Below the pieces are notes generated by a model. It made no database searches. It was not told where the DNA came from and was given only the letters and a program-made list of their open reading frames with translations. The translations under genes and the position numbers were made by a program. Positions 165 through 12,090 of a DNA stretch of 64,000 nucleotides are shown here, piece after piece (within the stretch, counting starts at the first letter, position 1; each line of letters begins with the position of its first letter). The DNA is from Candidatus Zhuqueibacterota bacterium (GTDB lineage Bacteria; Zhuqueibacterota; Zhuqueibacteria; Thermofontimicrobiales; Thermofontimicrobiaceae), in the NCBI GenBank assembly GCA_016783825.1, contig JADHVV010000002.1, positions 3,259 through 67,258 of the forward strand, given 5' to 3'.

Positions 165-3100
165 TTAAATCTTCTTAAATTTCCCAACCGGAATAATCCG
201 CTCGTATAAACTATCACCGCCATGGGTGTATCGCGGCGAATCCTTAAACGAATACCCTGTTTTTTCAACAAATCCATGATCACTGGAAAGATAGAAATTT
301 TCGTCTTTTTTTAATTGGGCGAGGATTGGGAACAGGAAAGATTTTAATCGTTCCATAAATTCAGCGAACACATCGGCGATGTTGCTTTTTTCCGCATGAA
401 TTTTTTCATCCAAAAAATTGATGATGTAAAAATGGGGTTCCTCGTTGTTGGTTAAAAAATGTTCCTTAAATTTCGATTTATTATATTCACGTTCCACACA
501 TTTCATGAATGGTATTTGTTCCTGCTCGAGAAATTGGTAGTATGTTTCGGTATCCGAGGGGATTAGCGACAGGCAAAAATTTTCTTCGACTAAAAAAAGT
601 CCGGCTTTCTCGCAAAGCTGGTCTATTAATAAATTATAAAAATCAGCACGCAGACCATCAATAATTATAAATTTTGCCGCTTCATTTTCCACGATCTTTT
701 TAACCTGGTATGAGATAAGATTGCGATCTTTTTCCCAGGTTGGTAACTTTACTAAAAAAGTATTCTCCAGTCTAATAAGGCGATCACGAATGGTTGTGTC
801 AAAAAAATGAGTAAAATCACCGGGCAAATACTGCTGCTGTTCATTGATACGAACCAGTTCCTTTGACAATAGAAAAAACCCGTTCTCTTCCACCGCAAAA
901 GGCAGAAATTGTGCATAAGATTCAGGGATTGCCAAAGCTGTTTTATATAACGCACTCAAGGTCAAAAAATTTTTCAGAAAAACTGATTCTTCGGATGAGT
1001 CCGTAAGCTTTTTGACCACTTCCATCTCGTCAAACGTGTTCATCTTTTTATAAACTGCAGCAATTGCCTGTTTCCGAATTTGAGGGAATCGATGCATGCT
1101 GCAAAATAATTGGATAATCAAATCGATTGGTAAATTTTCCAATTTTAAAAATTCAAACAGCAAAAGGATATTCTTCTGCGACAAGCAATCGAATAAATCC
1201 TTTTCCCTGGGTAATTGTTCGACGATGTTTTTTATCCCTTTTTCATCCAGCGAATCCTGTTTAAATCCGGGGATACTCACATTTACCTCTTTTAACAACA
1301 TGTACAAATATCCGGCGATAATTTTATCAATCGCCCTTTCGATAGTCTCGCCAGGAAATAATTTTTCGATTTCGCTTTTTACAAAAGTTGGCAATTCCAA
1401 AGATGGTTTTGATTGAACATTCTCAACAGGATTTTTAATTGAAATATAAACTTCACCCGAAGGCAGTGAGGCTTCATCCAGCCAGCCATAAAAAATCTGT
1501 TTTAGCTGGGCTGGCTGGAATTTTCGTCCATAGAGCATTTCGGTTAAATCATCTAAATTTTTATCCACAAAAATAATATCACCGGAAAGCGCTTCATTCA
1601 GTCCCGAAATTGTGTGCGGATTAATATTTTTTTCCAATTCAGTAATGGAAGGAAACGATGATAAATCCATGTTAAGAAAATATTCAAACTGATCGCTGCT
1701 TTTTACATCCCGCACCTGGTTAGCCGCTACTTTGTATTCGATGATCTTATTATGGTTTTCCTTTGATTTAATCGCGGTTAAATATTCTGTTATGCCCGAA
1801 TTGATCCGCTCCACCAGTTCATCCCTGGTATATTTTTTTTCCAAATTCCCGGTCTTTAATTGACAGGAACACACTGGTTTTGATTGCAGCTCGCGGGAAA
1901 GATCACGAAAACAGTTTACTGCCAGAATTGAATTGAAAATATTTTCAATTCGGATAAAGTCGTTTTTCACCGAGATCAATTCGATCTCCGAAAGATTTTT
2001 AAGGATTTTAAATTCGCTTGAATTTTTTAGGCTGTTAATTTCCTCATAATAATTTTTAGGATATAATTTTTCATGATATTCAGAATAAAGTTCCCGGTAA
2101 GACATTTTAAATTGTTCAAAATCAGAGAACAATGTTTCCAGTCCAAATCCTCCAAAACCGGATTCAAAAGATTGAAGTTTTTCAAGGAGTTGCTCAAAGG
2201 AGTCAGACAATCCCCTATTTTCTATTACTTGTGGAATTAATGGATGATTCGCATATTCATAAATAAAAACAATATGCTGTAAATTCGCGTTGTCGATGTC
2301 GTTAATTTTTTCAAAGGAAATCACTGCCCCTTGTAAGACAACTTCCGATTCAAAAAAATTCAGTAGCGATTCAATCCCCTTTCCTGAAGGCAGGGATCGT
2401 TTGATGTAGCTCATAACTTCTTTGAGATAGTTTAGGGACTCCAGGTAGTTTTCAAAAGTCCGGTTAGAAAAGGGCAATGTATTGCTGAACCGTTCCAGCA
2501 GTATGATTTTATTAGGTACAATATCTTCGTTTCTCTCTTTAAACTCCACCAGGTTTTCCCACACCTTTTCTTGTCCTTTTAAATGGAGTTCACTGTTTTT
2601 GATACTACCAACCAACGGCGTTAGTTTGAAATATTCTTTCAAAAACAATTTGGAAACCTGTTCCCCCGGGGTAAACAAATCCGCGTTCTCAATGACAGTT
2701 ACCGTAACCTGGTTCTGTTTTATCGCCCTGTTTTTATAATAAACCTGGATAAATCCGGCTGCAGATAACAGGTACAACACGAAAACAAATTGCGGCTTTG
2801 TGCAGCCAAAAACTGACTTGCGATATTTATCAAATAAATGGTTGTAACCCGGATTCTCATCCTCAATCGTTTTTAGCAAGTCACGAACAAAAACAGATTG
2901 TTCAGGATGCGGTTCAATAATTATTTCAAAGCCGACAATTTTTATCAAATGTAACTTTTCCACCAAATTTTTTATCAAAGATTTCATTGATTCCGATGAC
3001 ACAGCAAAATGGCGCCCGGTTAAATTTTCATTGATGTAATTGATGACCTCGTTAATTGAAGTTAGCGGCGGCTCCGAAATAATGGGTTTAATTTTTTTAT

Positions 3101-11300: not shown

Positions 11301-12090
11301 TCTCCGTAATATCGGTTTGATGTTTTTTTAGCCAATTTTCTATTTTCTGACTTTCTCCGCTTAACAGCCATTTTTCCAAAACGCTCGATAGTAAACCGCC
11401 CGAACATCTATCCGAATCTGATAATACCAATTGCTCGACATAATCGTAGTGTTCAGCTTTGTTTTTCCAATAGCGCAAGTCATTTACCAATGACTGTCTG
11501 AACAGGTCAGTATGAATATCCGCGGGTAATAGTTTAACCCAGTTTGGATCAAACGGATTACAACTGATTTTACCCAAAATATCGGATAAAGAATTGCCGT
11601 AGTCTATTTTGCTTTTATATTTGTGATAGAGGCTTTTTATTTGATCCATTTTATTTTGATAAAATAAAATACGAATAGCGGCGACTATATGATGATGTTC
11701 AAGATACGAATACATGTCCAGTGTATCTTCGGTCAAATTGAGGACAGTTTGAATCGTTTGCAGATAATGGATAGACTTTTTCTCCGTGATTATCTGACGC
11801 ATGATGGTTTCCACAATTCGACGATCAACGAGGAGATAACTGCGACTTTTGCCTTCCAATAAATGCTGTGCCAATAAAGAATCCAGCGCCGGACGCAGCA
11901 GCTTGAAACCCTCATTCTTTGTTACCGAATCGAATCCTTGACCATTGGCTGCTCTAATATCTGTCTTTATCAAACATTCTTTTAACTGGGTTTGATTTAA
12001 TGGAAAATATGCAATGGAGAGAATTTGCATAATGCTTTTTTCCAATGCGGGCTGTTTTTCATAACTTGAGATTGACTTATTGACGATCAT
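8302..12090 (-). CDS. SNF2-family helicase (1262 aa) with a long helical-repeat N-terminal region; helicase motif-IV segment apparently missing
   Basis: Motifs present: [22 protein letters not shown] (motif I), [11 protein letters not shown] (II), [18 protein letters not shown] (III), [44 protein letters not shown] (V/VI). NFAIPI is followed directly by [21 protein letters not shown] (junction near nt 8718/8719). Confidence 0.85.
   Translation of the reverse strand: [1262 protein letters not shown]

Follow-up and report, generated by a model that had tools for sequence, protein, structure and literature searches.

A tetratricopeptide repeat gene paired with a BrxC-PglZ fusion gene as a candidate modification-free derivative of BREX

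The window analyzed here is a 64,000-nucleotide stretch of contig JADHVV010000002.1 (positions 3,259 to 67,258 of the forward strand; GenBank assembly GCA_016783825.1) from a Candidatus Zhuqueibacterota bacterium. Near its left end lie a giant gene that encodes a BrxC-type ATPase fused to a PglZ domain, a gene for a tetratricopeptide repeat (TPR) protein and an SNF2-family gene, some or all of which a preliminary description of the sequence had suggested to form one system akin to bacteriophage exclusion (BREX). The TPR and giant genes recur as a pair and very likely form a functional unit, and the SNF2 gene is, with similar confidence, unrelated to them. The pair is best read as a self-contained, modification-free derivative of BREX for which, by analogy, an anti-phage or anti-mobile-element role is probable. 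A more specific reading, to which a probability of about 0.45 is assigned, is that the pair represents an undescribed methylation-independent branch of BREX: an immune system pared down to two proteins, where the TPR protein would provide sensing or control and the gap between the genes would act as a landing slot for defence genes in one clade. The pair and its parts are laid out as follows.

165-5366, minus strand: giant BrxC-PglZ fusion gene, 1733 aa (open reading frame (ORF) map, Pfam DUF6079, PADLOC BrxC, invariant catalytic residues)
4047-5366, minus strand: N-terminal ORC/Cdc6-clade AAA+ module of the giant, about residues 1-440 (profile, and model against BrxC structures)
1863-1913, minus strand: invariant cysteine trio C1152, C1166 and C1168 of the giant (24- and 50-sequence alignments)
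681-1388, minus strand: all-helical linker of the giant before the PglZ core, about residues 1327-1562 (secondary structure of the model)
168-680, minus strand: PglZ catalytic core of the giant, alkaline-phosphatase/NPP fold, about residues 1563-1733, metal site complete
5367-5809, minus strand: spacer between the TPR gene and the giant, 443 bp, with no cargo gene in the window
5495-5509 and 5559-5573: perfect 15-bp inverted repeat, unique in the window
5810-6772, minus strand: TPR gene, 320 aa, TPR repeats throughout and no enzymatic domain (Pfam TPR families)

Conserved synteny had been set beforehand as the test of the proposed three-gene system. Genomic contexts were gathered for diverse homologues of the giant and for 80 loci from species-representative genomes, and all ORFs of the fetched loci were scored with hidden Markov models built from the three parts of the giant and from six TPR partners. 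Counts refer to non-redundant loci in which the N-terminal domain of the giant was strongly matched. A homologous TPR gene of ~300-400 aa adjoins the giant relative in 29 of the 33 assessable loci. The TPR gene lies on the same strand between -26 and +100 bp from the start of the giant in 19 loci, and usually overlaps its start codon; in five loci of the same orientation the spacer is larger or a gene has been inserted (443 bp in the window, 493 bp in L002, 597 bp in L019, and loci L001 and L007), and in another five the TPR gene is divergent at a distance of 26-228 bp. Four loci have no TPR gene beside the giant relative, and in one its position could not be assessed. In the reverse direction, the giant follows the TPR orthologue in all five metagenome cases with enough downstream DNA. 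The two proteins also diverge in parallel, with identities of 73, 60, 35, 28 and 19% for the TPR protein versus 70, 58, 34, 28 and 23% for the giant. When 379 flanking ORFs were clustered all-against-all, the TPR gene was the sole recurring neighbor; no other flanking family was present in more than six loci, and the family that reached six consisted of ABC-type ATPases. In contrast, no homologue of the window SNF2 gene was detected in the 32 other giant loci, one of which (L026) has a shorter, unrelated SNF2 protein of 841 aa. The TPR-giant portion of the suggested system is therefore upheld by the synteny test and the SNF2 portion is not.

The pair is distributed over at least ten phyla, with hosts in KSB1, Spirochaetota, Halanaerobiales, Bacillota, Acidobacteriota, Desulfobacterota, Fibrobacterota, Actinomycetes, Planctomycetota and Gammaproteobacteria, and its flanks are different in every genome. 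No methyltransferase, BrxA, BrxB, BrxL or helicase recurs around the giant relatives in the 33 loci and no modification-module ORF was found in window positions 1-12600, which agrees with the proposal that the system lacks a modification module. BrxA and BrxB were absent from a PADLOC scan of the window proteins and from the 25 of 118 matched PADLOC families listed for 133 neighbor proteins; a BrxA/BrxB-like function may be present as a cryptic domain within the giant. In one lineage (L003/L004, 7889-8872) a Methyltransf_23-type methyltransferase gene immediately precedes the TPR gene; this small-molecule-type family was present in only two of the 133 neighbor proteins and is not a recurring partner. 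RecQ, which stands between the TPR and giant genes in L007, was rejected as a recurring partner as it is present only there.

Two variant arrangements were noted among the giant relatives. In a sub-family with shorter giants (L026, L031, L032, L041 and L050), complete ORFs measure ~1400-1440 aa and the TPR gene, located 26-228 bp upstream of the giant, is encoded on the opposite strand; the giant ORF of L026 reaches the contig end at 1531 aa. The relatives in L016 (9980-13987) and L017 (1025-5032) are 1335 aa long, have neither a detectable PglZ domain nor an adjacent TPR gene, and are each followed by a gene of ~1200 aa, possibly an unfused sister arrangement.

The N-terminus of the giant is matched by Pfam DUF6079/BrxC-PglY_N (E 1e-37; 129.6 bits versus a cut-off of 23) and the protein is also matched by the PADLOC BrxC model. 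The profile of the family matches BrxC structures 9zn5_A, 9zll_A and 9zdx_C with E values of 3e-18 to 3e-16. The whole-protein cut-off of NCBIfam model BREX_BrxC (NF033441) was missed, with 63.2 bits versus 400 and a match to the AAA+ region only. The Walker A (G67-H75) and Walker B (D228, E229) motifs are invariant in a 24-sequence alignment of the family. A predicted model of residues 1-1200 (mean predicted local distance difference test score, pLDDT, 84) retrieved BrxC structures 9zll and 9zdx (E 1e-12; TM-score 0.61-0.65 over the target) and then ORC/Cdc6 proteins. A five-stranded P-loop core in this model is followed by a winged helix-turn-helix (wHTH) unit at ~473-525, an alpha+beta domain at 531-720 whose fourth strand is followed by two long helices, two further wHTH units at 768-882, and long helices from residue 906 onward. 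As solved BrxC chains cover only ~550 residues, the topology was compared by eye with a published description, and the modeled domain order agrees with the BrxC architecture set out there (PMC12839542). The cysteine trio is positioned in a non-helical loop (1149-1180) between long helices of the model and could form a metal-binding, Zn-hook-like apex of a coiled coil. A search with the full-length giant returned at least 120 clusters, 111 of which are 1690-1870 aa in length; the other nine are shorter and several are marked partial.

The PglZ portion was more elusive. A Pfam search of the whole giant missed it, and PF08665 scored 16.8 bits on the C-terminal piece, under the gathering cut-off of 25; several close homologues have a precomputed PF08665 match. 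A profile of the whole giant found BrxC only in the PDB, and a C-terminal sub-profile was required to find PglZ: that of the last 200 residues matched PorX (8ted, E 9e-8) and BREX PglZ (9nv3_C, E 0.003). In canonical BREX loci (L042-L087) the C-terminal profile also detects the bona fide pglZ genes, which follow brxC at a distance of 3-5 kb. The model of residues 1290-1733 has a pLDDT of 91.7, and its 18 best PDB matches in Foldseek were PorX and BREX PglZ 9zn5_B (E 2e-8), with NPP/ENPP and MCR-1 coming after. The linker of the giant aligned in the structure search with the helical part of 9zn5_B and of PorX; an equivalent linker is described for BREX PglZ (PMC12839542). The metal-coordinating residues of PorX are D239, T272, D361, H365, D415, H416 and H500 (PMC9757075), and residues D1570, T1606, D1653, H1657, D1696, H1697 and H1715 of the giant, which are invariant in the family, have the same order and spacing. 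T1606 thereby takes the place of T272, the nucleophilic threonine. When the last 444 residues were searched as a single sequence, 72 cluster representatives among 1.84 billion were retrieved, and the full-length matches were mostly proteins of 1400-1870 aa aligned at their extreme C-terminus. Overall, the BrxC profiles, the PglZ profile, the seven PorX ligands and the two confident models bear out the ATPase-PglZ fusion that had been read from the sequence: the giant is, on profile and model evidence, a full-length BrxC-type ATPase fused to a minimal PglZ phosphodiesterase with an intact predicted active site.

These two parts are the universal core proteins of BREX (types 1-6). BrxC and PglZ assemble physically through BrxB in BREX, whereas in the giant they are one polypeptide. 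Compared to BREX PglZ, the giant keeps the linker and catalytic core only and is without the inactive Swi2/Snf2-like N-domain, the HTH units and the C-terminal beta-sandwich. Among the features that define BREX, the pair has a BrxC/PglY-type AAA+ ATPase and a PglZ phosphodiesterase, the latter as a fused C-terminal domain, but has no modification module (PglX/BrxX, or the PAPS reductase of type 4) and no BrxA, BrxB or BrxL/BrxH. BrxA-like and BrxB-like (inactive STAND) components have been called universal in BREX (PMC12839542). None of the modules PglX, PAPS reductase, BrxA, BrxB, BrxL and BrxH recurs with the giant, for which the TPR protein is the only partner. Both by structure and by profile, the last 440 residues of the giant are closest to PorX, which is composed of a receiver (REC) domain, helical linker and PglZ; the arrangement of linker plus PglZ is common to the two, as are the metal ligands. 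However, PorX is under receiver-domain control in a two-component system linked to type IX secretion, and the giant has a 1300-residue BrxC module and no REC domain.

Recombined BREX parts likewise feature in the BREX-related (BR) systems and in a system centered on HerA/FtsK (Rakesh and Krishnan, 2026; PMC12839542), in a study that covers the BREX types, three DUF499-centered related systems and a HerA-centered composite. In the type-3 BR system a minimal PglZ domain stands alone, and DUF6079 and PglZ are used outside BREX proper by the HerA system (PMC12839542), but these systems differ from the pair in retaining a methyltransferase and helicase or in having seven components. That study mentions neither 'TPR', 'tetratricopeptide' nor a BrxC-PglZ fusion, the literature searched contained no description of a TPR and BrxC-PglZ pair, and PADLOC 2.0 and NCBIfam have no dedicated model for it.

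It is very probable that the pair works with the same BrxC-PglZ core as BREX. BrxB, BrxC and PglZ form a core complex (PMC13326643), and BREX PglZ is a metal-dependent nuclease (PMC12205998; PMC12839542). Extending what is known of BREX and PorX, the BrxC part would bind DNA and multimerize under the control of ATP, and the tethered PglZ domain would thereby be positioned or activated and would nick or degrade nucleic acid. The covalent fusion would take over the role of BrxB in bridging BrxC and PglZ. The TPR protein, which in most lineages would be produced in fixed proportion from an overlapping reading frame, might act as a protein-binding sensor or regulator that restrains the enzyme until a trigger arrives. 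As no modification gene accompanies the pair, self and non-self would not be distinguished by methylation, unlike in BREX. By analogy, the chance that the TPR protein and the fusion constitute a defence system that works in this manner is judged to be about even, or slightly better.

If so, the pair has wider significance. Part of what makes the anti-phage mechanism of BREX hard to resolve is the entanglement of six or more proteins with a methylation step, and a two-protein pair without a methyltransferase would be a simpler object with which to probe the BrxC-PglZ core. The fusion is also independent 'Rosetta-stone' support for the physical BrxC-PglZ complex reported in 2026. The question would then arise of how self is spared without modification, for which the TPR partner is the obvious candidate.

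Variable conflict-type cargo in the gap between the TPR and giant genes is the chief contextual support for the proposed immune role, again by analogy. The following cargo was read in relatives that are 66-80% identical.

L001 8441-9892 and L098 2668-4038: Schlafen AlbA_2 plus HATPase_c_4, split in L098
L095 4864-6061, also L096: DUF3800 plus an ORF of no recognized family
L102 610-1626: Fic plus HTH_17
L097 3941-4947: DUF6036/AbiEii-like nucleotidyltransferase
L007 7560-9929: RecQ

A DUF4062-TIR gene is situated immediately downstream in L001. Schlafen-kinase-wHTH genes are frequent BREX accessories (PMC12839542), and defence genes are often embedded within defence systems (bioRxiv 10.1101/2024.01.29.577857). 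The 443-bp spacer of the window and its perfect 15-bp inverted repeat, both of which had been remarked upon previously, are real. The stem-loop spans 5495-5573 on the minus strand and is followed by UUUU; the RNA fold has an energy of -36.8 kcal/mol (z = -6.7) and none of 200 shuffled sequences was as stable. Between the two genes it may serve as an attenuator, a terminator or an RNA-stability element. The spacer sequence shares short patches with the L102 gap and shows no conservation with the L002 spacer. Rfam gave no match at gathering score, and a conserved RNA or small ORF was ruled out on this basis and by the lack of conservation with L002. No remnants of the genes embedded in relatives were found in the window spacer.

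The SNF2 gene and the other neighbors, which are outside the proposed system, are arranged as follows.

6884-7027, minus strand: 5'-truncated remnant of a YgiT/MqsA-type zinc-finger antitoxin gene
7070-7363, minus strand: ParE toxin (Pfam ParE_toxin)
7360-7584, minus strand: PF09720/TIGR02574-type antitoxin (Pfam Unstab_antitox)
7727-7977, minus strand: Phd/YefM pseudogene, frameshifted after codon 31, ParE partner gone
8302-12090, minus strand: SNF2-family gene, 1262 aa, SNF2-rel_dom plus Helicase_C
12509-13939: sodium:solute symporter (ORF map)

The ORF map places every gene of 165-12090 on the minus strand, as had been described. The same gene order is found in a sister genome, the metagenome-assembled genome (MAG) GCA_014381395.1 of candidate division KSB1, whose proteins include a partial protein that is 100% identical and an SNF2 protein that is 99% identical to those of the window.

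The SNF2 product is 1262 aa long versus 1394-1415 aa in all close homologues. Pfam coverage comprises positions 1-198 of 290 in SNF2-rel_dom and 32-110 of 110 in Helicase_C. The difference is due to an in-frame deletion after residue 1124, with the junction near nucleotides 8718/8719 between FAIPI and SLIRAYL, that removes 133 columns of the alignment (134 codons when the DNA is compared). The deleted stretch lies between lobe 1 and motif V and includes PFILRRTK and motif IV (KALVFSQF); the gene thus does not encode a complete two-lobe motor with motifs I-VI. An intein, or an insertion in the relatives, was ruled out as the source of the length difference as the missing stretch holds universal SNF2 motifs. 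The reading frame is intact despite the deletion, which is also present in the sister MAG. The product has in addition a 900-residue N-terminal region that is uncharacterized. The nearest full-length relatives are 75-79% identical and are annotated as Deltaproteobacteria, Desulfobacterales, Bacteroidales and Cloacimonetes. Such identity to proteins from other phyla points to horizontal transfer. Three contexts of these relatives were inspected and the gene was solo in all: among Hdr-type redox genes, by PIN/VapBC pairs, or among hypothetical and toxin-antitoxin (TA)-like genes. Neither BrxC nor PglZ was nearby in any of the three.

The SNF2-rel_dom and Helicase_C domains are common to the window protein and to stand-alone bacterial SNF2 helicases (DpdE, ZorD, DrmD, RapA and the SCO1167 type), but the window protein differs from these in being without the motif IV region. 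DpdE and ZorD gave high PADLOC scores but were rejected, as curated cut-offs were missed and partner genes are missing: NCBIfam scores were 32 versus 500 for DpdE, 187 versus 1500 for ZorD and 357 versus 1200 for SCO1167, and no Dpd, Zorya or DISARM partner genes were found in the window region. Matches to the BrxHI and BrxHII models (66 and 45 bits) extended over the generic C-terminal lobe only. The SNF2 gene is best explained as an independently acquired gene with a deletion in its motor, and in annotation should be kept apart from the pair and marked as internally deleted.

The original grouping, in which the TPR protein, the SNF2 protein in a BrxHI/BrxHII helicase role and the giant are one BREX-like system, is not without appeal: the three genes share one orientation over 12 kb, their arrangement is retained in the sister MAG, SF2 helicases are used by BREX types 2 and 3 (PMC12839542), and helicase genes are near the pair in L007 (the RecQ insertion) and in L026 (the 841-aa SNF2 gene beside the divergent TPR gene). 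Nevertheless, the synteny test largely refutes it, as the 32 other loci have no homologue of the window SNF2 gene. The deleted motor, the weak and partial BrxH matches, the solo contexts of the full-length relatives in other phyla, and the intact TA pair and two TA remnants that stand between the SNF2 and TPR genes also argue against it, and the grouping is now very improbable. The surrounding decay, namely the Phd pseudogene, the YgiT fragment and the deleted SNF2 gene, together with the absence of a methyltransferase, might alternatively suggest that the locus is an eroded, non-functional remnant of a canonical BREX system that lost PglX and other genes. This explanation is disfavored to the point of being scarcely credible. 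The two-gene architecture with an intact ORF of 1690-1870 aa recurs in >120 protein clusters and >30 loci across phyla, and the catalytic residues are all invariant, including in this copy. Moreover, every member lacks the domains that stand N- and C-terminal in BREX PglZ, so the minimal form of PglZ is a stable architecture of its own and did not arise by recent truncation.

Several observations weigh against the reading of the pair as a methylation-independent BREX branch with an immune role. Sequence similarity to the canonical BrxC of the loci tested was not detectable for residues 421-1539 of the giant, and the BrxC-like topology suggested for this middle region derives from the predicted model and the published description. 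In the window and its closest relatives a strong hairpin and a distance of at least 440 bp separate the TPR and giant genes, and co-transcription is only a possibility in this genome. PorX-type PglZ targets signaling oligonucleotides and not DNA, so the substrate of the giant, by analogy, might be either DNA or an oligonucleotide. The 133 neighbors in 24 loci of giant relatives are mostly housekeeping proteins with few matches to defence models, and the top match, mad3, with six members, is probably generic as Pfam ABC_tran has the same count; enrichment of defence islands around the relatives is accordingly weak. Neither 72,556 plasmids nor 50,697 phage records contained a full-length copy of the giant, and no compositional island is evident from G+C contents of 0.367 for the giant, 0.329 for the TPR gene and 0.373 for the window. 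Much of this would fit a TPR-giant module that is real but does not serve defence, either as a housekeeping or regulatory DNA-associated machine or in PorX-like turnover of signaling oligonucleotides. The metabolic, transport and cell-structure genes that predominate among the neighbors, including those for Rnf, FliG, RecA and MreB, accord with such a module, as do the lack of a modification partner, the native base composition, the absence of plasmid and phage copies, and the cleavage of cyclic and linear oligoadenylates by the PglZ domain of PorX (PMC9757075). However, the pair is rare and patchy across phyla and occupies a new genomic position in each genome, conflict-type genes are inside the cassette of several relatives and a TIR gene adjoins it in L001, and its closest relatives by both sequence and fold are BREX proteins. 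A non-defence role is thus considered unlikely, without being negligible.

As had been surmised, the TA genes are passengers, carried independently in a variable region. The genes at 7070-7584 are an intact type II TA pair by sequence: ParE_toxin scored 36 bits versus a cut-off of 23 and Unstab_antitox 28 bits versus 23.3, and the genes overlap by 4 nt. The decayed Phd copy is a frameshifted pseudogene that aligns by tblastn with the intact Phd gene at 14983-15264 as two pieces in different frames, with 90% and 85% protein identity; the N-terminal piece has a Pfam match. These close paralogues flank the deaminase, symporter and SNF2 genes, which hints at past duplication or rearrangement between TA copies. 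The zinc-finger fragment corresponds to the second half of the YgiT finger (TIGR03831, E 0.0011, positions 26-45 of 46, just below the cut-off), with in-frame stops upstream.

The designation of the locus as an island is only partly sustained. In the sister MAG (L092, 4415-7232) further TA-type genes, comprising a DUF433/DUF5615 TA pair, an AAA-ATPase_like/PDDEXK_9 gene and a HicB-like gene, continue downstream of the giant, beyond the left end of the window, and the neighborhood therefore is TA-rich on both sides. In contrast, G+C content is ordinary and the right flank is housekeeping, with the symporter, cytidine deaminase and carAB, although an intact Phd/ParE pair also is located there. 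The gap at 12091-12508, between the symporter 3' end and the SNF2 start, had been termed repeat-only but holds just one 31-nt direct repeat, AAGTCCCAGCTCACTAAAGTGCATTGGTAAC, in two exact copies (12202-12232 and 12269-12299) that have 36 nt between them and starts 67 nt apart; it is present also in the sister MAG. The geometry is CRISPR-like, but a CRISPR repeat was rejected, as the window has only these two copies and metagenome contigs yielded no exact match. Finally, a 97-aa ORF at 13947-14240, in the interval between the symporter and deaminase genes, has a partial match to the alcohol dehydrogenase GroES-like domain only and is probably a gene fragment.

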